DNA from: Roseibacillus sp.
GTDB taxonomy: Bacteria > Verrucomicrobiota > Verrucomicrobiia > Verrucomicrobiales > Akkermansiaceae
Assembly (NCBI GenBank): GCA_051251855.1
Contig: JBPOGI010000003.1
Coordinates: 96,001 to 160,000, forward strand
DNA length: 64,000 nucleotides
Direction: 5' to 3'
Shown here piece by piece: positions 43,338 through 57,497 of the stretch (the first letter of the stretch is position 1; each line of letters opens with the position of its first letter). The notes beneath the pieces are model-generated. The model searched no databases. It was not told where the DNA came from and worked only from the letters and a program-made list of their open reading frames with translations. A program made the position numbers and the translations under genes.

Positions 43338-44069
43338 TTAAGCGGCTTCGTTGTCGTTTTCTTCGCGAGCAGCGCGTTCGCGCTTGAGTTGGGCGAGGGT
43401 GATGGGCTTCCGAAAGTATTTCCGCATCGCAAGGACTCCGACGATCGCACCACCGAGGTGACAGGCATGTCCAATTTGGAAAAGACTTTCGCCTCCGCGC
43501 ATCGCAATGGCTTCGCCGAGGTTTCCGAATACGGGAATCCCAAGACCGGGAATCATCAAAAGTAAAAGGACGGTGCCTGCAATGATGCCGTTACGGAGAT
43601 TGCGGGCGCGAATGGGAAGGGGAAACATTTTCGATTCGGGCGAGACAGTTGTGAGAGCGATGAAGAGCCCCATGCCAGCTCCCGATGCTCCAATTAAGGG
43701 AGAACCGCCTTGGAAGAGGAGATGAAGGAGTCCGCCGCCCAGGGTTGCCCAAGTTGCTGTGCGCCAAACTTCTCGTTCTCCGAAGATGTCGTGGATGCGG
43801 CCTCCGAAGTAATAGAGGAAAAAGGCATTGGTGAGCCAATGAGTCAGATTTCCGTGCAGAAGGGGATGGGTGAACAGTTCCCAGAAATGCCCTTTTTGGA
43901 AAAACCCACCACGGGAAAGGCCTAGAACTTGATACCATTCTTGCAGTGGCCCTTCCGCTCCTCCTGAGAATTGAAAGGGAAGAAAGATGAGTAGAAGGCT
44001 CAGCGGAACGAGGGTGTGAAAGTTCCACCCTGGTCGAGGAAATCGAAGACGTTTCGGGCGAAACTGCAT
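43338..44069 (-). CDS. rhomboid intramembrane serine protease
   Basis: W.LFTH..LHG..H...N, GASG and H..HLGG. Confidence 0.85.
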   Translation of the reverse strand: MQFRPKRLRFPRPGWNFHTLVPLSLLLIFLPFQFSGGAEGPLQEWYQVLGLSRGGFFQKGHFWELFTHPLLHGNLTHWLTNAFFLYYFGGRIHDIFGEREVWRTATWATLGGGLLHLLFQGGSPLIGASGAGMGLFIALTTVSPESKMFPLPIRARNLRNGIIAGTVLLLLMIPGLGIPVFGNLGEAIAMRGGESLFQIGHACHLGGAIVGVLAMRKYFRKPITLAQLKRERAAREENDNEAA

Positions 44070-44251
44070 CAAGATGGGGACCACGATACAGTGAACGCCC
44101 CACAAGTGAAGAATTTGCTTAAAAAAGAGAGTCTCCCGACTGGGGATGACAGCTCTCATCAGAGCACAATGGTCCACTCATTGAGTTGGAGACAGCGTGG
44201 AAAGAGGCTCTTTAGCCTATTTCGTTACCAAAACAGGTCTGCGGCTATGGG

Positions 44252-44824
44252 CTAGCTCTCGCCCTTAGCACGTGGTTCGCCGGAGACTCGATCACCGCCT
44301 GAGCTCGTGACGAAGGGGCCGCCTTCCATGGGTGCGACACCAGTTGAGGCGACGTCGGGCATGTCAGTAGGCTTACCGGCAAGCGGGAAGTCTTTGCGTA
44401 GTGGATAGTAGGGATAGCCCTCCCACATCAAGATACGACGTAAATCGGGATGGTCCGAGAACTCGATGCCCATCATGTCGTAGACTTCGCGTTCGTGCCA
44501 GTTGGCGCTCTTCCAAATGTTGACTGCGGTGGGCACTTTGCCGCCTTCTTCCACTTTGGAGCGGATGCGGAGATGTTTGGAGTCATCGACGTTGGCGAGC
44601 TCGTAGACCATCTCGAAGCGAGGCTCCTCTTGGTCGTGGTCGATGCTGGAGATATCGATGAGAAAGTCGTAACCGAGGGCGAAAGCTTCCTTGAGAGCGG
44701 CTTCTAAGGAGTCGAGTTCGACTACCACGGTGGTCTCGTTGCGGAATTCGACAGTTTCGAGAAGGGCGGAACCCAACTTCTCACGGAGAGAGTCGACGTC
44801 AGCGGAAATCAATTCGGAGTTCAT
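44252..44824 (-). CDS. nuoC: NADH-quinone oxidoreductase subunit C
   Basis: [23 protein letters not shown] and PLRKDFP. Confidence 0.95.
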
Positions 44825-45366
44825 GCTTCGACGGTTTTTTCTTCTTTGCTTTGGTTAAAGATGGATTCGCCTTCGATTTTTCGCTGCAAACGCATCAAGC
44901 CTTCGAGGAGAGCCTCGGGGCGAGGAGGGCAGCCAGAGATGTAAACGTCCACAGGAATGAGGTTATCGATGCCTTGAAGGACGGCGTAGCTACGATACAT
45001 ACCTCCAGAGGAGGCGCAGGCACCCATGGCGATACACCACTTAGGCTCAGGCATTTGGTCCCAAACGCGTTTGACGGCGAGGGCCATTTTGTAGGTCACG
45101 GTGCCGGAGACAATCATCACGTCCGACTGGCGGGGCGAAAAGCGCATGACCTCAGCGCCGAAGCGGGAGATATCATAACGAGAAGCCCCGGTAGCCATGA
45201 GCTCGATGGCGCAACAGGCGAGACCCATGGGCATTGGCCAGAGGGAGTTCTTGCGCATCCAATTGACGGCAGAATCCACGCGGGTAAAGATGATGTTGCC
45301 CTCGATTTTGGAATCGTAGGCAGCATGCGCTTCGGCAGAACCTCCGGAAGTATCGCTCGTGACCAT
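44821..45366 (-). CDS. nuoB: NADH-quinone oxidoreductase subunit B
   Basis: [25 protein letters not shown] and GCPPRPE. Confidence 0.97.
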
Positions 45367-45492
45367 AACGGCGGCACTTTACCCTGCCCAAACCGACTCA
45401 CAAGCCCGACTTTGTGAAATTTTTCACAAGGTCTTCGCGGGGAGTCCGCATTTTTCTGGCAAATCACAATTCTTTCGGGAACAACCCTTCCC

Positions 45493-46272
45493 ATGAACCG
45501 ACCCGATGGACGCCAGAACGACGAAATGCGCGAGCTCACCTTCACGCCCAATGTGGCCCCGAATTCTTCGGGATCGGTGTTGGTTTCGTTTGGAAATACC
45601 CGTGTGATTTGTGCGGCTACGATTGAAGAGTCGGTGCCGGGCTGGATGCGGTATCAAAAGGTGGAGGGCGGTTGGCTGACGGCGGAGTATTCCATGCTCC
45701 CGTATTCGACCCATGACCGGAAGCGCCGTGATATTTCCAGTGGCAGATTAGATGGGCGTTCTTCTGAGATTCAAAGACTCATTGGTCGTTCTTTGCGGGC
45801 GGTAGTGGATTTGAAAAAGCTGGGATCACGGACCATCTGGCTCGATTGCGATGTGCTGCAGGCTGATGGCGGAACTCGGACGGCTTCGATCACTGGGGGT
45901 TGCGTTGCCATTGCCATCGCCATCAACAAGCTGATGGCGGAGGGGAAGTTGAATGATTTTCCGATGAAGAGCCTCATTTCCGCGATTTCCTGTGGCGTTT
46001 ACGAAGGCGAAGTGGTCCTTGACCTCAACTACCCCGAGGACAAAGCCGCAACCGTCGATTCGAACCTCGTGATGACGGAGTCGCTCCAGTTCGTGGAAAT
46101 GCAAATGTCCGGCGAAGAAGCCACCTTTACCGACGAGCAAATGGCCGAAATGGTCAAAATGGGTAAAAAGGGTTGTTCTGAAATCACTGCGAAGCAGAAG
46201 GAAGCGATCCTCGCTGCTGATAAGGCAGGTCCCGCTGATTTAGAAGACCTCGCCTCGGCCTTTGGACGGTAG
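45493..46272 (+). CDS. rph: ribonuclease PH
   Basis: GWLTAEYSMLP, EIQRLIGRSLR and DCDVLQADGGTRTASITG. Confidence 0.97.
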   Translation: MNRPDGRQNDEMRELTFTPNVAPNSSGSVLVSFGNTRVICAATIEESVPGWMRYQKVEGGWLTAEYSMLPYSTHDRKRRDISSGRLDGRSSEIQRLIGRSLRAVVDLKKLGSRTIWLDCDVLQADGGTRTASITGGCVAIAIAINKLMAEGKLNDFPMKSLISAISCGVYEGEVVLDLNYPEDKAATVDSNLVMTESLQFVEMQMSGEEATFTDEQMAEMVKMGKKGCSEITAKQKEAILAADKAGPADLEDLASAFGR

Positions 46273-46298
46273 GGGGAGCACTTTGTTTTGAAGCGCTT

Positions 46299-47921
46299 TT
46301 ACTCGTCCAACTCGATTCGGTAGAAGTAGTGTGGCTCTTCTGGCGCGGTCAGTTTCAGCACTGCTCGGTAGTAGCCGGGATTCAGTTCGCTGAAGATGGT
46401 GGCTGCAGAATGATCGGTATTAAAGCGTAAGTCATTGGAGCCTTTGAGCTGCCATCCGGTGAGCCCGGCCTCGGCGGTAAATTCGATGAGGTGTTCAATG
46501 GCGTTCTTCTGGAAAAGGACGATGTCGAGAGGGCGGGAGAACTTGAAGAGGTAGGCAGAGCCGATGTCATCCCCGTTTGGGGGGCCGATAGCAGGGTCTA
46601 CCCCATACGCGGCTCTGTCCTCTTGGGGAGCACCGATGAGGGCGACGTCGCCATCTAAGGCAACCGCTGTACCAAAGGCGTCCCCCGTTTCCAGATTGTC
46701 AGGAATGAAGTCAGCTTGTGGCGTCCAAGCCCCAGCCTGTCGCCGAAAAAGATAGGCCCTTCCGGTATCGGAGGTGTGCCAAGGAGCGCCCGCGAGCAAG
46801 AGTTGTCCCGAGAGGGAGACCGAGGCTCCAAAACCGGGGTCGGGATCGGCTCCGACTGGCTTTAAGATCGCCTGCCCCACCCAAGTCGCCCCAGAACGAA
46901 CGTAAACATAGACGGCCCCTTCATTCGAATCTTGCTCGGGAGCACCAACGGCCACCGTCTCGCCTGAGACCGAAACCGACATGCCAAAGGCGGCATCCTC
47001 CTGTGGATTGGCGGCCTTAAGGTAAGCCTTCTCACTCCAGACTCCAGCGGCATTGCGCACAAAGATGTAGGCCGCACCTGAGTCGCTCAGGCCATCGCCA
47101 TTTTCGGTTGGATTTGCACCCGAGCCGCTCGAATCTTCGTTAATGCTTCCAATCACAGCCACCGAGCCGTCCAAGGCGACAGCGCCTCCAAACTCATCGC
47201 CATCTCCAGTATTAGAGGGCTTGAGATACGCGGTCTGTGACCAGACATCGGAGCTATCGCGTTCGAAGACATAGACGGCCCCTGCCTTTGTCAGGTCGTT
47301 ATTAGATTCTGAACCGTTGACCCCAGCAGTTCTGCTTTGCTCACTCGTGGCACCGACAAGGATGGTGTCTCCCGAGATGGCTACGGAGTAACCGAAGTTG
47401 TCACCATCGTCCGTGTTAGAGGCTTTGAGATACGCCTGCTGGGACCAATCTCCGGAGCTATCTCTCACAAAGACATAGGCAGCGCCGGCATTGGTGAAGC
47501 TGGAGTCAGATTCATCGCCATTGACTCCCGTGGCATTGCTTCGCTCTCCTCTGGCACCGACGACAATGGTATCTTCATCAATGGCTACCGAATGACCAAA
47601 CAACTCGCCGCTGCCTCCACTGGTAGCTTTGAGGTAGGTAGTTTCCACCCAACCAGAGCCATCGTTGTGGTAGATGTAGGCGGCCCCCTGGCTGGAGGAG
47701 TCTTCGTTTTGCAGATTGTTACCGATGCCATCCGAGTTGCTGTCTTCGGCGCCAACCCCGATGACGGCATAGGAGCCCGAGATTGCGACAGCATCGCCAT
47801 AGTTCTCGTCGACGCAGGGGCAGAATGAAGAGCTTTTGAGATAGTGAAGTTGATCGACGAGCAGTTCAGCTTGGGCTGAGAAACAGAGAAGGGGGAGGAA
47901 AAGTCGTGGAAATATGTTCAT
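46299..47921 (-). CDS. secreted FG-GAP (integrin-alpha-like beta-propeller) repeat protein
   Basis: About 7 repeats of YLKASN...D.FG.SVAISG.T..VGA..E...GAAYVF. Confidence 0.88.
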   Translation of the reverse strand: MNIFPRLFLPLLCFSAQAELLVDQLHYLKSSSFCPCVDENYGDAVAISGSYAVIGVGAEDSNSDGIGNNLQNEDSSSQGAAYIYHNDGSGWVETTYLKATSGGSGELFGHSVAIDEDTIVVGARGERSNATGVNGDESDSSFTNAGAAYVFVRDSSGDWSQQAYLKASNTDDGDNFGYSVAISGDTILVGATSEQSRTAGVNGSESNNDLTKAGAVYVFERDSSDVWSQTAYLKPSNTGDGDEFGGAVALDGSVAVIGSINEDSSGSGANPTENGDGLSDSGAAYIFVRNAAGVWSEKAYLKAANPQEDAAFGMSVSVSGETVAVGAPEQDSNEGAVYVYVRSGATWVGQAILKPVGADPDPGFGASVSLSGQLLLAGAPWHTSDTGRAYLFRRQAGAWTPQADFIPDNLETGDAFGTAVALDGDVALIGAPQEDRAAYGVDPAIGPPNGDDIGSAYLFKFSRPLDIVLFQKNAIEHLIEFTAEAGLTGWQLKGSNDLRFNTDHSAATIFSELNPGYYRAVLKLTAPEEPHYFYRIELDE

Positions 47922-48082
47922 GGGGGGGGTGCCTTTATATGGGGATACCATCGCGGACTCGCTTTCTGACACCGAAGATTCCATGGTCTCTCAGTTCCCG
48001 CCGCTGTGGGTGATTTTCTCTGGTGGCTTGGCTCGGCTTTTTCCTTGTGAAGCATGGCGTGGGGCATACTTTTGGTGCCCCA

Positions 48083-51058: not shown

Positions 51059-51460
51059 CTAGCCGAAGGAGAAGCCGGGGTCCATGCAACGGGCTTGCTC
51101 GCTCTTAGTCCATGCAGTGATAGTCATTCCGTAGAACAGTTTCACCTCTCGCGCGAGGTGGGTGTAATGGGAAAAACCGAGGAGAGAGACAATTTGGTCA
51201 GCTCCATAACCCATCCGCAGATAGCGCTGAGCTAAAATAATTCGATGTCTACGGAAATATTCTTTGGGGCCAGATCCGGTAGCTTTTTTGATGGCGTTCT
51301 CCAATTCTTGCACTTGCGCGCCCACTGCGGAAGCGACGGCAGCGACTTTAAATTGATTTTGTTCGGCTAAAGTCATGATGTCCTGACCATCCTCGGTTAG
51401 TAACCGGTGACCATCCCTAATCAATTTAAGAGAGGCTTTACGTTGATTTTTTTCCGCCAT
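51059..51460 (-). CDS. small AraC-family HTH protein (DNA-binding domain only)
   Basis: VA..VG....LE...K..TG.GPK.Y....RI..A...L......I...LGFS...HL.R..K..YG.T. Confidence 0.8.
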   Translation of the reverse strand: MAEKNQRKASLKLIRDGHRLLTEDGQDIMTLAEQNQFKVAAVASAVGAQVQELENAIKKATGSGPKEYFRRHRIILAQRYLRMGYGADQIVSLLGFSHYTHLAREVKLFYGMTITAWTKSEQARCMDPGFSFG

Positions 51461-51749
51461 TTCCAAAGAAATTGCCTGAAAACACGGGGTTTGTCCACCA
51501 AATAGTAAAGAAAATGTGACTTCTTAACTCACTTAGAATCAGGATTCTTTTGAAATAAACTTAAAAATAATGTCCCAAAATCCGAAATATTTTGAACTTT
51601 TCAAGGCTTGGGGTTTCGAATCAAACATACATCAGCATTCATAGAAGGCGTAGATTTTGGACTGAAATATAGTCTAGGATCGAAGTCTTTTAGCAAATGT
51701 CTCGTTTTTCTCGAAAACAACAACTTCACACCAAAACCAGTTATACCCA

Positions 51750-53282
51750 ATGTCGATGCAGAACACACAAGAGGAGCTATCATCCAGCCTAGTCAGCTTT
51801 GTGACGAGTCGCGGATTCCGAGTCCAAGCGCAAGTGAAAGAGCTCCGCTCGGATTCTTTGGCCTTCGAGCTCGTTAGCGCGGAGAATGTCCTCCAGCTTT
51901 CCGAAGTGTTGAACGATGTGGAAATCCACGTTGGAGGAGAATTGGCTTATCAGGGAAAGCTCTCAATTGTTGGTCTTGTCCCATTGGGGGTGATGGTGGT
52001 TTGTGAGGCGCGTCTCTCTGACAAGTGGCTTTTGGATTGCTTCCGTAGTGAGGACTTTTTGACGAATATTGGTCAGCACTTAGAGGAGCATACTGTTAGG
52101 TGGGCGAAGAGTCACGAGATCGGTCCAAAGTTTCGTTTGGCAGTGGCGGATTTAGAAACCTATTTGACTGGTTTGGAGAATTGGTGTGATCAGGTTGAAT
52201 GTGGCGCGCTCTCCGATGAGGAGGATGCAAAGATGAAAGAAGAGAAAATTCTCAATGAGCTCGGTCCGATCGTGAGCCGCGAGATTACCTCTCACTTTGC
52301 AGAGTATGAGCGGGTGGTGAAGATGTTGGATGAGGAAGGGCGCCAGGCGCATCGTTCTCATCTCATGAAGGCTGTGCACCGCTTTATTTTGCAGTCACCC
52401 TTTAGCTATCGTTGTTTCACAAAGCCTCTCGGGTATGCGGGCGACTACGGGATGGTTAATTTGATGTTGGGAAATCCATACCAAGGGGCGACGCTCTTTG
52501 CTAAGTTGCTCAACTACTCTTTCCTCGATACGGGCCCCGTGGTCGCGCATCAGAATCGTATCGACTATCTGGTTTCCACCTTGCGAAAGGTGGCGAGCGA
52601 GCGAGCGGCCAAGGGGTTGAGAACACGAGTTTTGAATTTAGGTTGTGGGCCAGCGGAAGAGATTCAGCGCTTTATTGAGGCAGATCCTGTTGCAGAAAAT
52701 TGCGATTTTGAGCTCTTGGACTTCAATCCTGAAACTCTTCGCTATACCGAAGGGCAAATGAAGGCTGCTCAGCAGCGAAGTGGCCGTTCGGTGAACATTC
52801 AGTTTATCGAAGAGTCCATTCAGGGATTCTTACGCCAAGCAACCCGAGGGGAGAGTTATCCTAAGGAGGGCTATGACTTCGTCTACTGCGCGGGATTGTT
52901 CGACTATTTGCAGCAGCGCTTTTGTGCCAAATTGACGAAGGTGATGTTTGGTCTCGTGAAAGAGGGAGGGTTGACGGCGGTGACGAACGTTTCCCGAGAC
53001 AATTCCATCCCTGCGGTGATGTCCGACTTTCTGGATTGGACTTTGATTGAGCGCTCTCAGGAGGAGATGTTGGATTTAGTTCCGACTGGAAATTTAACTT
53101 TACTTAAAGAATTGAAATCTGACTCGACTCGTATTAATCTCTTCCTTGAGCTCCGGAAACCGGCGGCTCAGACTCGTAATGTGGGAGCGCCTGAACAAGT
53201 TGATGCAGCCGAAGTCAGTCGATCCCGCCTTTCTGGCGAGGTTCGAGGCGGAAGAGGCCATCTCGAGGGTTCCGAATTATAG
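51750..53282 (+). CDS. phcB: PhcB-like SAM-dependent methyltransferase (3-hydroxy fatty acid methyl ester signal synthase family)
   Basis: SEVL, KPLGYAGDYGMVN, AHQNRI, VLNLGCGPA.EIQRF, YCAGLFDYL and NLFLELRKP, recalled as Ralstonia PhcB signatures; followed by sensor and receiver genes. Confidence 0.8.
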   Translation: MSMQNTQEELSSSLVSFVTSRGFRVQAQVKELRSDSLAFELVSAENVLQLSEVLNDVEIHVGGELAYQGKLSIVGLVPLGVMVVCEARLSDKWLLDCFRSEDFLTNIGQHLEEHTVRWAKSHEIGPKFRLAVADLETYLTGLENWCDQVECGALSDEEDAKMKEEKILNELGPIVSREITSHFAEYERVVKMLDEEGRQAHRSHLMKAVHRFILQSPFSYRCFTKPLGYAGDYGMVNLMLGNPYQGATLFAKLLNYSFLDTGPVVAHQNRIDYLVSTLRKVASERAAKGLRTRVLNLGCGPAEEIQRFIEADPVAENCDFELLDFNPETLRYTEGQMKAAQQRSGRSVNIQFIEESIQGFLRQATRGESYPKEGYDFVYCAGLFDYLQQRFCAKLTKVMFGLVKEGGLTAVTNVSRDNSIPAVMSDFLDWTLIERSQEEMLDLVPTGNLTLLKELKSDSTRINLFLELRKPAAQTRNVGAPEQVDAAEVSRSRLSGEVRGGRGHLEGSEL

Positions 53283-55890
53283 GATTGCGAGTGGTCTTGG
53301 GGCTATCTTCATTGCCGCTGGTTCCGTTATGGACCGGTTGGCGTTTCCTGAACTGTGGAAGACCTTAGTCCTGCTCCGAGCAGAATGTGCGTTTACTCTT
53401 CTCTTACTCTACGCTCTTCTGGGCACTAAGTGGGGAGAGAAGCGCCATCTCATTATTGGCCACTTTATTGAGGGGTCTTTGATTTTGAGTATTCTGGCCA
53501 TGATTGGTCGGACAGGAGGAGCTAGTTCGCCTTACTATGCCGGGCTGAGTCTGGTGATGGTGGGTGCGAGCCTTTTGTTGCGGTGGTCGTTATGGCATGG
53601 AGTGGTCAATGTGCTCTTTTGCTGCGGCTGCTATAGTCTCTTGATTTTCTCTTTCCCTGTTCATGAAGGGTCTGAGGGAGGGAGGAGTCTCGCGATTTCG
53701 ACCTTCTTTCTCTACGTGACCGGATTTTTCACGGCGGCGGGAACTTACTTTCTTTATGAGCTTCGGTTGAATGAGTTTAGGTTGCGGGAAGAGCTGACTG
53801 CCGAGAGGAAGCGCTTGGAGAAAAGCCACCGGCAATTGCAGGAGCTAGATGAAGCGAAGACGAATTTCTTCGCAAATGTGAGCCATGAGCTTCGGACACC
53901 ACTGACCTTAATTCTGGGGCCTATCGAACAGCTAGCTTCGTATGGCCCCGTCAAAGAGAACCGGCAGCTGAGTACGCTGGTTCATTCCATGGAAGAAAAC
54001 GGGCTACGTCTTCTTCGCTTGATCAATGAATTATTGGACTTGATTCGGATTGATGGCGGCCAGCACAACGTTGAGACCGAGCTGACGAAAGTCGACGATG
54101 TCGTCGCATCCATTTATGGTTCTCTTCTTCCCACTGCGGAGCAGAAGGGGCTGACCCTTGAACAGGATATCAGTGACGCCCCCAAGGGTATCTTCAAAAT
54201 TGATCGGATGAAGTTCGATAAGGTATTAGTCAACTTGGCGACCAATGCTCTGAAGTTTACTCCCGAAGGAGGGACTGTGAAATTGATAGCGCGAAGCGTG
54301 GGGGAGGATTCGGTCGAATTTCTTGTTCAAGATACTGGAACGGGGATGAGCGAAGACGAGGTTGATAATGTCTTCCGAAGATTTTGGCAGGCGGACACGA
54401 GTTCCAAGAGGCGGCATCGTGGAGCAGGAATCGGTCTTTCTCTCGTGAAAGGAATTGTCGATCTATTGGAGGGAGAGATTGAAGTTGAGAGTGCATTGGG
54501 TGTGGGAACGACCTTTACGGTGAGGCTACCTCTGGGCCAAAGAGTGTCTGGGACTGCAGGTGAGCCTCTCGAACTTGAGCTTGATCCGATCGAGGAGTTG
54601 AACCGGAGAGCGCAGTTTGAAGGAGGCCGACTCCCAGAAAGCGCACTTGATGTGGAGTCTGCAATCGTGACTCCTAACGGGGATCGACCGGTGGTTCTCA
54701 TTGCAGAAGACGAGGCCGATGTGCGCGATCTCATCGTCTCTCAGTTGGGGGATTACCAGCTTCTGGTTGCTGGAGATGGAGAGAAGGCGCTCCAGCTTGC
54801 CAATCGCTTTTTACCTGATTTGATTCTCTTGGATTGGATGATGCCGGAGCGTGATGGACTGGAAGTCTGTCGCCTCCTTCGCGAAACGGCTGCATTGGAG
54901 CGCGTGCCTATTGTGATGCTAACCGCGCGTATCGATGAGCGTTCTAAGATCGAAGCGCTTGAAGCGGGTGCGAATGACTTTTTGACCAAGCCTTTTGCGC
55001 CCACCGAACTGAAGCTTCGAATTGGCCACCTACTCAATAGCGGGCGTTTTGAGAAAGAGGTGGTGAGAAAATCGGAAGAGCTCGGGGTCGCAATGGCTGA
55101 GTTGAAGGAGTCCGAGTCCATGTTGGTCCAAGCTGAGAAGTTATCTTCCTTGGGGCAGATGAGCGCGGGTATTATTCACGAGATCAACAACCCACTCAAT
55201 TACGCCAAAACCAATCTCTACTCGCTTCGGACCTTTGCAAAATTGCTTCCTGCCGAGGAGCGAGAGGATTTCGTGGAAGTCACCTCTGACGTTGAGGAGG
55301 GCTTGGAGCGTGTGGTGCAGATTGTGAAGGATTTGCGCAGCTTCGCAGTGAAGGACAAGACTCAGTTCAGCGACGTCAATCTTGCTGAAGTGGTCGCAGC
55401 GAGTTCTCGCTTGTTAGGGCACCGACTTACCAACGTTCAATATAGTGCCGAACTGCCGGACCACATTCACGTGAACGGCAACTCAAACCAGCTTTGTCAG
55501 GTCTTCGTCAATTTTATTCAAAACTCGCTTGATGCATTGAAAGAGGTCGAGCGCGAGAACGAAGAAGGGGAGATCCGGATTGAGCTGGCCCAAGGAACGG
55601 ATTGGACCTCACTGCATTTTTACGACAATGGCTGCGGAATTTCCAAAGAGAATCAGCAGAAAATTTTCGACCCCTTCTATAGTAGCAAAGACATTGGACA
55701 TGGAATGGGTTTAGGACTCAGTATTTGCTATCGGATTCTTGACCAACACGGTGTTAAAATCGAGATTGATAGCAAAATCGGAGAGGGGACGCACTTCACG
55801 CTCAACTTTCCGGTGATTCTGGACGATCTTGAATTCGATGAATCGATAAAAGCTTCTCTCAAGGAGGCTCCTTTTACCCAAACAACATGA
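53179..55890 (+). CDS. PhcS-like membrane sensor, hybrid double histidine kinase (TM-HisKA-HATPase-REC-HisKA-HATPase)
   Basis: About 6 TM helices with SPYYAGL; HELRTPL, NALKF, DTGTG, GAGIGL; REC AEDE..DWMMP..KPF; second HEINNPL, NSLDA, DNGCG, GMGLGL. Confidence 0.88.
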   Translation: MWERLNKLMQPKSVDPAFLARFEAEEAISRVPNYRIASGLGAIFIAAGSVMDRLAFPELWKTLVLLRAECAFTLLLLYALLGTKWGEKRHLIIGHFIEGSLILSILAMIGRTGGASSPYYAGLSLVMVGASLLLRWSLWHGVVNVLFCCGCYSLLIFSFPVHEGSEGGRSLAISTFFLYVTGFFTAAGTYFLYELRLNEFRLREELTAERKRLEKSHRQLQELDEAKTNFFANVSHELRTPLTLILGPIEQLASYGPVKENRQLSTLVHSMEENGLRLLRLINELLDLIRIDGGQHNVETELTKVDDVVASIYGSLLPTAEQKGLTLEQDISDAPKGIFKIDRMKFDKVLVNLATNALKFTPEGGTVKLIARSVGEDSVEFLVQDTGTGMSEDEVDNVFRRFWQADTSSKRRHRGAGIGLSLVKGIVDLLEGEIEVESALGVGTTFTVRLPLGQRVSGTAGEPLELELDPIEELNRRAQFEGGRLPESALDVESAIVTPNGDRPVVLIAEDEADVRDLIVSQLGDYQLLVAGDGEKALQLANRFLPDLILLDWMMPERDGLEVCRLLRETAALERVPIVMLTARIDERSKIEALEAGANDFLTKPFAPTELKLRIGHLLNSGRFEKEVVRKSEELGVAMAELKESESMLVQAEKLSSLGQMSAGIIHEINNPLNYAKTNLYSLRTFAKLLPAEEREDFVEVTSDVEEGLERVVQIVKDLRSFAVKDKTQFSDVNLAEVVAASSRLLGHRLTNVQYSAELPDHIHVNGNSNQLCQVFVNFIQNSLDALKEVERENEEGEIRIELAQGTDWTSLHFYDNGCGISKENQQKIFDPFYSSKDIGHGMGLGLSICYRILDQHGVKIEIDSKIGEGTHFTLNFPVILDDLEFDESIKASLKEAPFTQTT

Positions 55891-57032
55891 GCGACAACAA
55901 CACGCCCCCATCTGCCGGGAACTACTATGTTCTCTTCGTAGACGACGAAGAAAAGACTCGGAAAGCCTTTAACCGCCTTTTCGGAGATGAATTTAAAATC
56001 CTGTTAGCTGGAGACGGCGCGGAAGGCTTTGAGGTTTTCCAAGAACGGAAGGATGAGATCGGAGTCATCGTGACGGATCAAAAAATGCCTCGAGAGACTG
56101 GGGTCCAGTTTCTGGCGAAGGTGGCCGAGATGGATGATGATGTCGTTCGCATTCTTTCCACCGCTTATGCTGAACTCGATGCAGCGGTGGCGGGGGTGAA
56201 TGAGGGGGGAATCTATCGCTATGTTACGAAGCCTTGGGATGTTCCTGAGTTGGAGATCACCCTTCGTCGGGCGATGGAGCTCTTTAATCTACGTAAGCAG
56301 CAAGCTTCGCACGATAGCTCAGGGAATCTGGATGTGGAGCAACTGATTCTCAATCAAAGGGTTTCGGGGTTAGCGTTTTCGCAAGCGGCTGCGACCGACG
56401 GGCGACCTACCTTCGTCTGTGCGGGAAGTATCTTTCTCGGGATGCTAGGTTGGCAGGGGTTGGGTGATGGAGGTTCCGTTGATTGGGAAGCTCGCTACCA
56501 AGCGGAGAGTGATTTCTTCCGCACCGTCTTTCGGGAAAGCATGGAGACTCTTGCTTCACAAAGCAGTCTCGATTGGTCGCGGACAGCACCGCCTTCTGCA
56601 GCCATTCAAGCGGCCGCGATCGGATGTGTGGGAATCAATTTTCAACCGGCGAGTAACGACTCGAGTATCTGGCCAGGACCTGCGCCTCTGCTCTCGGAGG
56701 CTCTTCGTCCACTTATGGTTGCGTTTGCTTCCATGGTCGCCCTCTTGCCTGGCGGGAGTTGCGAAGTGAAAAGCAATTTCAATACGGTCGATTTTCAATT
56801 CTCGGGACATCCTCTTAAGGACGGTCAACTTCAGCTTGCGACGGCTCCGGAAGGAGCGCCCGTTCTTGCCGATTTGCTGAGAGCCTGTGTCCTTGTGGAA
56901 GCCTGTGGTGGCAAGCTCGCCTTGTTGGCAAGTGCCGAAGGTCTCTTGGTTCGCTTGGGCTTTGAGCAAGATGCAGTCCCCGAGGATGTTGGTTTGGCGG
57001 CTGTTCAGCAACTGACGAGTTCAAATTCTTAA
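55887..57032 (+). CDS. PhcR/PhcQ-like response regulator (REC plus degenerate kinase-like C-terminus)
   Basis: FVDDE, TDQKMP, RILSTAY, GGIYRYVTKPWD; no HTH; ATGA overlap with the sensor. Confidence 0.8.
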   Translation: MSDNNTPPSAGNYYVLFVDDEEKTRKAFNRLFGDEFKILLAGDGAEGFEVFQERKDEIGVIVTDQKMPRETGVQFLAKVAEMDDDVVRILSTAYAELDAAVAGVNEGGIYRYVTKPWDVPELEITLRRAMELFNLRKQQASHDSSGNLDVEQLILNQRVSGLAFSQAAATDGRPTFVCAGSIFLGMLGWQGLGDGGSVDWEARYQAESDFFRTVFRESMETLASQSSLDWSRTAPPSAAIQAAAIGCVGINFQPASNDSSIWPGPAPLLSEALRPLMVAFASMVALLPGGSCEVKSNFNTVDFQFSGHPLKDGQLQLATAPEGAPVLADLLRACVLVEACGGKLALLASAEGLLVRLGFEQDAVPEDVGLAAVQQLTSSNS

Positions 57033-57044
57033 GCAAGCCACCTC

Positions 57045-57425
57045 ATGATCAAGTTCGTCTATTGTGTTCGAAAGAAGGAAGGCACTTCGGACGAGGACTT
57101 TTACCGTTATTGGAAAGAGAATCATGGTCCCTTGGTGAAGAGCTTCGCCGAGACCATGGGATCTCTCAAGTATGTCCAGAGCCACACCATCGATACTGTC
57201 CTTAATGAGGTTGGTCGTGAGGTGCGGGGCATGAGGCAGGCTTACGATGGCATTACAGAGGTTTGGTTCGAGTCGGCAGATGCCCTCAATGCGATGCTGC
57301 AAACTGAAGAGGGTAAAGTGGCGAACAAGGCTTTGATTCAGGATGAGGCGCGTTTTTGCGAGCTGGCCGAGTGTTCGGTCTTTCTCACCGAAGAGCATGT
57401 TATCTTCGATCGGATGGGTTCGTAG
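57045..57425 (+). CDS. EthD-domain (dimeric alpha/beta barrel) protein
   Basis: K......RK.G.S.E.F..YW...H..L, YVQSH, YDGITEVWFES and DE.RF. Confidence 0.85.
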   Translation: MIKFVYCVRKKEGTSDEDFYRYWKENHGPLVKSFAETMGSLKYVQSHTIDTVLNEVGREVRGMRQAYDGITEVWFESADALNAMLQTEEGKVANKALIQDEARFCELAECSVFLTEEHVIFDRMGS

Positions 57426-57449
57426 CTCTTTCAAGAAGAGTGTTTTTTT
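57425..57449 (+). terminator. probable intrinsic terminator ending the phc-like operon
   Basis: GCTCTT-TCAAG-AAGAGT followed by GTTTTTTT. Confidence 0.5.
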
Positions 57450-57497
57450 GAACAATTGAGGGTTGCCTCAGAGCCGACTCTTTCTTCTCATACCGGC

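Follow-up and report, generated by a model that had tools for sequence, protein, structure and literature searches.

Whether a methylated lipid signal of the type produced by the Ralstonia phc system might also be made and sensed by a verrucomicrobium is the question raised by a gene cassette of Roseibacillus sp. (Verrucomicrobiota, Akkermansiaceae), which is located at positions 51,059 to 57,449 of a 64,000-nucleotide window (positions 96,001 to 160,000 of contig JBPOGI010000003.1, assembly GCA_051251855.1; coordinates below are those of this window unless a locus or genome is named). An initial annotation, made from the DNA letters alone, had proposed a fatty acid methyl ester quorum-sensing system equivalent to the phcBSRQ operon. 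Judged from sequence comparison and by analogy with characterised systems, the cassette probably makes and senses a diffusible methylated lipid, with two kinases that would signal to a PhcQ-like protein and a small AraC-type transcription factor (mini-AraC) as candidate readout, in other words a rewired Phc system. The five open reading frames for the mini-AraC, a methyltransferase, a sensor kinase, a receiver protein and an EthD-family protein were all recovered where they had been placed, with the expected Pfam domains.

Methyltransferase, sensor and receiver protein

The first plus-strand gene (51750..53282) encodes a class I S-adenosylmethionine (SAM) methyltransferase of the PhcB family with 510 amino acids (Pfam Methyltransf_31). 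Its homology to PhcB, initially proposed from sequence motifs, is upheld by 31.6-35.3% identity over more than 380 amino acids to 78 Burkholderiales PhcB proteins and by a Burkholderiales PhcB profile of which it is the single match in the genome (E 4e-99; the genome profile searches covered 22,511 open reading frames). With profiles built exclusively from Burkholderiales proteins, the locus is the top match in the genome for PhcB, the PhcS membrane domain, the PhcS kinase and PhcQ, and all motifs quoted in the initial annotation are present in the window proteins, each with a counterpart in the Ralstonia locus L108.

The Phc reference set for these comparisons consisted of the best 80 of 596 confirmed loci from a genome scan, which are all betaproteobacterial or belong to unassigned Pseudomonadota because a Paraburkholderia protein headed the query alignment. 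The Ralstonia solanacearum complex is not among these best 80 loci, and other Ralstonia species served as reference. Nine of their loci were checked for the residues PhcB R22, PhcS L161 and H230, and PhcQ R154, which are named for Ralstonia in the accessible text of PMC6989110 and PMC11960443: R22 is present in 9/9 and R154 in 7/9 loci, H230 is found in six of the nine and H235 in the remaining three. Three of the six with H230 (L108, L109, L112) also possess L161, and these three combine all four residues. As the named residues match and the lengths of PhcR and PhcQ fit those given in the accessible part of PMC8578825, these loci are sound stand-ins for the studied phcBSRQ operon.

The predicted structure of the methyltransferase (predicted local distance difference test score 90.9) combines a six-strand N-terminal beta domain, a helical middle part and a Rossmann class I methyltransferase domain, with 3ocj as the best structural match (Z 20.7, root-mean-square deviation (rmsd) 3.4, 260 residues aligned); a sequence search of the PDB gave no significant match. 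Among Atlas neighbours of the protein, from Myxococcota, Nitrospirota and Bdellovibrionota, 10-84% of members carry a PilZ annotation. Pfam gave no PilZ match for the N-terminal domain of the window methyltransferase or of Ralstonia PhcB, so that a PilZ-like beta domain is no more than a lead. The family is large, with 1,553 clusters (50% identity) at E 1e-30 or better, many homologs being labelled '3-hydroxypalmitic acid methyl ester biosynthesis protein' at JGI, and the closest named homolog is that of Roseibacillus persicicus (70%). The long forms split from five short paralogs, with a Shimodaira-Hasegawa-like approximate likelihood ratio test (SH-aLRT) support of 84, in a quick tree whose outgroup branches are long. 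A genus-specific C-terminal tail of approximately 35 residues (53179-53282) is encoded where the gene overlaps that of the sensor; confined to the closest homologs (at least 50% identity), it is probably a by-product of this overlap.

The sensor gene (53179..55890, plus strand) encodes a hybrid kinase of 903 amino acids from the ATG at 53179, in which HisKA and HATPase_c each occur twice together with one Response_reg domain. A PhcS-type membrane domain (about residues 20-205) is followed by kinase 1 (H236), a receiver (D552) and a PhcS-type kinase 2 (H667), with the H, N and G boxes intact in both kinases. That the membrane region is of the PhcS type, as initially proposed, is borne out by a profile of 76 Burkholderiales PhcS membrane domains, which has the sensor as its one match among all open reading frames of the genome (E 2e-15), and by shared residues: G48, D52, R67, M108, G114, S117, Y119, Y120, G122, L125, Y152 and R196 are at least 70% conserved in both groups, and the sensor motif SPYYAGL corresponds to SPYYSGL in Ralstonia locus L108.

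These likenesses raise the narrower proposal that the signal is Ralstonia's own, methyl 3-hydroxymyristate or 3-hydroxypalmitate, with possible cross-talk with Burkholderiales. All motifs of the catalytic region are common to Ralstonia PhcB and core membrane residues are common to PhcS; moreover, no dedicated synthase for the substrate is encoded at the locus, and therefore ordinary fatty-acid synthesis may supply it. Many near-invariant Burkholderiales membrane positions are, however, changed in the sensor (W to I97, L to E98, P to L101, Q to I102 and W to A107), and the genes beside related cassettes, for EthD, an HxxxDG-motif protein (9 loci, 4 genera) and a polyketide synthase (PKS), vary. 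We consider an identical signal unlikely.

The membrane domain has MASE8 (PF20968) as its top Atlas feature match (0.96). The homolog of locus L027 passes the Pfam cut-off for this family (40.3 bits), unlike the window sensor and Ralstonia PhcS, neither of which gave a PF20968 match. Our literature search found no ligand described for MASE8. For membrane domains that resemble MASE8, the cassette offers a candidate class of ligand.

The length of the sensor could suggest a fusion of PhcS and PhcR. A quick tree covering 77 kinase domains unites kinase 2 of 19 verrucomicrobial sensors with 11 PhcS kinases (SH-aLRT 99) and places kinase 1 and the PhcR kinases in separate groups of their own. Because kinase 2 joins the PhcS kinases and the PhcR kinases form their own clade, the fusion was rejected. 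The membrane domain and the PhcS-type kinase are not directly joined in the sensor, since a kinase and a receiver lie between them; the related sensors of L141 and L142, without kinase 1 and receiver, have a layout like Ralstonia PhcS, that of L034 is split into two proteins, and ten genomes of genus g193 possess sensor frames of 461-481 amino acids. The kinase-receiver module is mobile. A 739-amino-acid PAS-type kinase encoded on the same contig outside the window (G000:C7:78271-80487) possesses the closest relative of the PhcS/kinase-2 group among outside kinase domains; it pairs with an extra kinase adjoining the cassette in L154 and is a possible second input.

The third gene (55887..57032, plus strand) encodes a receiver protein of 381 amino acids (Pfam Response_reg; D64, T92, K115) without a DNA-binding domain. 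The initial annotation had called it a receiver protein; its receiver domain is nearer to PhcQ (median of 98 bits against 77 PhcQ proteins) than to PhcR (median of 76 bits against 64 proteins), and R158, in the helix after the receiver, aligns with PhcQ R154. Neither a recognisable H box nor ATP boxes are present. The C-terminal 250 residues, 70% identical to the Roseibacillus persicicus homolog, match third-position receiver-kinases of other verrucomicrobial families (HH 96%, 224 columns), which in turn match PhcR kinase cores (HH 99%) and are also linked to the PhcQ C-terminus (HH 96% over 50 columns). The secondary structure of the model is compatible with a bundle of helices that precedes a kinase-like alpha/beta domain. 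In structure searches with the full model, the receiver domain accounted for most of the matching; a Foldseek alignment with LvrB (8vc9) spans the entire model (387 columns, E 9.5e-8), at a template modelling (TM) score of 0.28 and an rmsd of 19.6. On these sequence and model comparisons, we read the third protein as a PhcQ-like receiver on a degenerate, presumably dead, histidine-kinase core, which suggests that PhcQ-type proteins are decayed receiver-kinases.

Distribution, partner genes and proposed relay

The distribution of the cassette was surveyed in 300 genomes of the family and 401 genomes of the phylum. A full-length methyltransferase homolog, the putative signal synthase, is encoded by 15 of the 401 phylum-sample genomes, counting the own genome, and by 103 of the 300 family genomes, a few with fragments only and with 0/62 in genus g2, so that about one third of the sampled family genomes carry the cassette. 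For synteny, 54 loci were compared: all 14 non-own full-length matches of the phylum sample and 40 genus and family matches chosen for long contigs and genus spread. The sensor gene follows the methyltransferase gene in 54/54 loci, and a receiver gene of the same type follows in 51/54; the synteny survey suggested by the initial annotation hence reveals a cassette that is syntenic across Verrucomicrobiota. As the sensors group by genus on the tree, with g189 in two places, inheritance appears mostly vertical. Genomes of genus g6 (L041, L043) possess a second cassette with a short methyltransferase of 319 amino acids, a PhcS-like membrane kinase and a receiver-kinase.

The sensor is encoded by 107 of the 300 family genomes, 101 with and 6 without the methyltransferase. 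In the six latter genomes (G401, G406, G454, G459, G476 and G561, 92-98% complete), the AraC, sensor and receiver genes are contiguous, and the methyltransferase is missing from the locus and was not found genome-wide. In the tree of sensors, theirs are scattered over four or more positions, always among sensors of their own genus, and the well-supported branches require the methyltransferase to have been lost independently no fewer than four times. Such scattered losses within genera are as expected for a shared extracellular signal. Conversely, the two methyltransferase-positive genomes without a sensor match, G505 and G596, possess fragments only; the homolog of G596 is in two pieces (G596:C121:30908-31731) and represents either a decaying cassette or an assembly error.

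Losses of this kind also bear on the view that no extracellular signal exists, the methyltransferase modifying the sensor or an intracellular membrane lipid and the kinases reporting the state of the membrane or of fatty acids. Sensors that remain intact after enzyme loss, a gene overlap of up to 104 bp in the genus, which fits co-translated partners, and the extra N-terminal beta domain of the methyltransferase would all agree with it. On the other hand, a characterised member of the enzyme family makes a diffusible ester (accessible text of PMC11298618), and a FadL-family outer-membrane lipid channel, needless for an internal modification, is a recurrent neighbour, adjoining 23/54 loci in 8 genera and also a phc locus of Methylotenera. 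Purely internal modification therefore appears improbable to us.

The proposed readout of the diffusible signal is the mini-AraC, encoded on the minus strand (51059..51466) and consisting of 133-135 amino acids with the likely start ATG at 51460. It is a transcription factor with AraC helix-turn-helix (HTH) domains only (HTH_18, E 3e-13), and control by its amount or by a partner is suggested, since it has no ligand-binding domain. Its gene adjoins the cassette in 39/42 family loci. A mini-AraC profile matched 109 of the 300 family genomes, 105 after removal of four weak matches (E >1e-29), and 98 of the 103 methyltransferase-bearing genomes; in 84 of these 98, the gene lies within 8 kb, 57 times divergent and 27 times downstream. 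Genome G451 is a seventh strong AraC-only genome, with no sensor nearby. Genome G473, in addition to a full cassette, encodes a second sensor together with a mini-AraC on another contig (G473:C66:33624-34759), possibly a solo listening module. Complex prediction for the receiver protein and the mini-AraC (score 0.01, mark 0.32) is uninformative either way.

The mini-AraC might alternatively be a downstream target or a hitch-hiker, with the true output being another regulator elsewhere, for example of the LysR type like PhcA, which is unlinked to phcBSRQ in Ralstonia. The cassettes outside the family do without a mini-AraC, and in genus g4 its gene is often away from the cassette. Against this stand its persistence by the cassette in both gene arrangements, its retention beside the sensor in 6/6 loci that have lost the methyltransferase, and its duplication with the second sensor in G473; a different output is less likely, though not negligible. 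The weights given to the alternatives overlap in part with that of a diffusible signal read out by the mini-AraC.

Further neighbours point, on sequence grounds, to varied chemistry. The last gene of the window cassette (57045..57425, plus strand) encodes an EthD-family protein of 126 amino acids (PF07110, E 6e-19); beyond this family, it matched only fungal CTB10, and weakly (E 0.4). Its subfamily is encoded by 29 of the 300 family genomes, adjoins the cassette in 11/54 loci and was not found in the two same-genus genomes lacking the methyltransferase. As all 29 carriers are methyltransferase-positive and it is gone from both same-genus listeners, EthD belongs to the producing side, and since 74 of the 103 producers gave no match with the EthD query, it is dispensable. 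Elsewhere, a reducing PKS of 2,100 amino acids is encoded directly upstream of the methyltransferase in five loci (L035-L039; genera g14 and g26), with three receiver proteins downstream, and a protein of 334 amino acids (L146:12877-13881), encoded beside FadL in nine loci of four genera and absent from the window locus, carries an HxxxDG-like motif of the kind typical of CoA-dependent acyltransferases; this protein gave no Pfam or PDB match.

Taken together, the following relay can be proposed. As homology suggests, the PhcB homolog would methylate, with SAM as donor, a fatty or polyketide-like acid at its carboxyl group, and EthD, by its co-occurrence, probably tailors the substrate or the product. 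The ester would exit the cell and bind in the PhcS-type membrane domain. If the sensor works as LvrA/LvrB do in Leptospira, binding would alter the autophosphorylation of kinase 1 at H236, leading to phosphorylation of the internal receiver at D552, which would switch kinase 2 (H667) on or off. Kinase 2 would set the phosphorylation of the PhcQ-like protein at D64, whose dead kinase core may act by protein contact. In the weakest step, the amount or activity of the mini-AraC would be controlled in the way PhcQ controls PhcA in Ralstonia.

Several observations weigh against this relay. Identity to PhcB is no higher than 32-35%, the position of PhcB R22, a change of which alters Ralstonia signalling, is a Q in the methyltransferase, and structure searches retrieved generic methyltransferases, which give no substrate information. 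Compared directly, the C-termini of the receiver protein and PhcQ fail to align (HH probability 21%). Loss of the methyltransferase with the sensor retained equally fits a modifying enzyme. The mini-AraC adjoins 0/12 cassettes outside the family and is not adjacent in 14/98 genomes within it; since its profile derives from genes beside cassettes, and since related genomes do not count as independent cases, its co-occurrence indicates linkage, not function. Neither FadL nor a PKS is encoded at the window locus or at 6/6 same-genus loci, and the FadL genes of the genome are only distant ones (21-24% identity). Finally, the trees come from quick or FastTree runs and carry no bootstrap values.

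A broader picture can be offered with distinctly more reserve than the diffusible signal itself. The cassettes could represent an old, vertically inherited form of lipid-ester signalling with dialects in free-living members of the family, in which the synthase and different tailoring genes (EthD, the HxxxDG protein and, in other families, the PKS) would yield methyl esters not yet described, a kinase of two stages and a receiver with a dead kinase core would act on a stand-alone AraC regulator, several lineages would be listeners without synthase, and Ralstonia PhcS would be a shortened sensor. As far as sequences can indicate, the cassette suggests a chemical signalling system in free-living Verrucomicrobia. 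Homologs in the cultured, named relatives Roseibacillus persicicus, Luteolibacter luteus and L. marinus make the question of communication directly testable, and producer and listener pairs within one genus provide a natural comparison.

Organisation of the locus

The cassette is flanked by argininosuccinate lyase (argH) and recQ. The tight coupling of the four plus-strand genes held on inspection: methyltransferase and sensor genes overlap by 104 bp, or by 80 bp with Met9 as the sensor start, the position at which the closest relative begins in the alignment, sensor and receiver genes overlap by 4 bp, and a gap of 12 bp separates receiver and EthD genes. The AT-rich spacer of about 290 bp to the divergent mini-AraC gene was also confirmed (51467..51749); it measures 283 bp from the AraC TTG and 289 bp from the ATG at 51460, and its GC content is 35% versus about 53% across the window. 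A promoter scanner called no sigma-70 consensus promoter within the spacer.

The spacer includes a conserved motif of 18 bp (51585..51602, plus strand), which could serve the methyltransferase gene as promoter or operator element. It is found with 0-3 mismatches in 6/6 spacers of same-genus producers and at chance level (6 mismatches) in both same-genus loci lacking the methyltransferase, and was not found in the spacers of other genera. As the genome has a single copy when up to 2 mismatches are allowed, and the motif is not conserved beyond the genus, a regulon defined by it was rejected. The 'probable terminator' that had been thought to close the operon did not hold up well: the weak AT-rich hairpin followed by seven T (57424..57452, plus strand), a possible terminator before recQ, has a z of -1.73, 14/200 shuffles folded equally well, and a terminator scanner made no call there.

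Upstream of argH, the window encodes a secreted repeat protein resembling, by eye, an FG-GAP beta-propeller (46299-47984) and a trypsin-like peptidase (PF13365; 48023-49573). Two genes at 44252-45366 resemble nuoB and nuoC, likewise by eye, with no further nuo-like open reading frame recognised within 44000-46300.

Comparison with known systems

For the sensor and the third protein, the closest architectural counterpart is the LvrA/LvrB system of Leptospira. LvrA shares the kinase-receiver-kinase layout, and the LvrA model NCBIfam NF047465 covers residues 200-879 of the sensor, yet at 287 bits against a cut-off of 1200, so that the sensor falls outside the LvrA family. LvrA autophosphorylates at its first histidine and phosphorylates LvrB, and it is a cytoplasmic protein that has a PAS sensor but lacks membrane segments, in contrast to the membrane domain present here (accessible text of PMC5863495). 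LvrB is a receiver-controlled kinase, the layout proposed for the third protein, but keeps a phosphorylatable His161 (ibid.), whereas the third protein has no recognisable H box. The main text of that paper never uses the word 'methyltransferase', and LvrA/LvrB may serve as an architectural model only.

The mini-AraC resembles the activators of the MarA/SoxS type, proteins of about 130 amino acids that consist of a double HTH only, without ligand-binding domain. NCBIfam, on the other hand, assigned it to no such family above cut-off and, unlike those activators, its subfamily tracks a phc-type sensor.

As to phcBSRQ itself, the initial annotation had claimed the same gene order. What stands is that a methyltransferase of the PhcB family comes first, followed by a PhcS-type membrane domain and kinase and then by a protein without DNA-binding domain that is PhcQ-like in its receiver part. 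The set is not identical, however: no PhcR gene, encoding a receiver and a kinase with H box, lies between the sensor gene and recQ, the PhcR profile matching exclusively the receiver domain of the third gene and, weakly, both sensor kinases; the sensor comprises 903 amino acids versus 442-447 for PhcS owing to an extra kinase-receiver module; and the third protein carries a probable degenerate kinase core with a C-terminus that is not directly alignable to PhcQ. As it lacks two features of the canonical operon, PhcR and a simple PhcS, the cassette is filed as a Phc variant. Among the reference loci themselves, L002 (4919-11349) is a phc operon on a conjugative plasmid of Paraburkholderia graminis, preceded by a gene of the cyclopropane-fatty-acid synthase family, and in this operon, as in nine closely related Paraburkholderia loci (L047-L055), little more than the receiver domain of PhcR is left.

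In place of an unlinked LysR regulator, the verrucomicrobial cassette has a linked gene for an AraC-HTH-only factor and an EthD gene. PhcQ binds and stabilises PhcA (accessible text of PMC13320629), and Phc is still called unique to the Ralstonia complex in reviews (accessible text of PMC11298618). The string 'Verrucomicrob' is absent from the main text of a 2026 review on quorum sensing (PMC13220807) and, in agreement with the initial annotation, which knew of no characterised system of this type, no paper on the verrucomicrobial cassette was found, most subscription journals being outside the search. Many homologs already carry a PhcB-type label at JGI. What this locus adds are the AraC partner, the listeners without synthase, the link to EthD, the FadL, HxxxDG and PKS neighbours of related loci, and the spacer motif.

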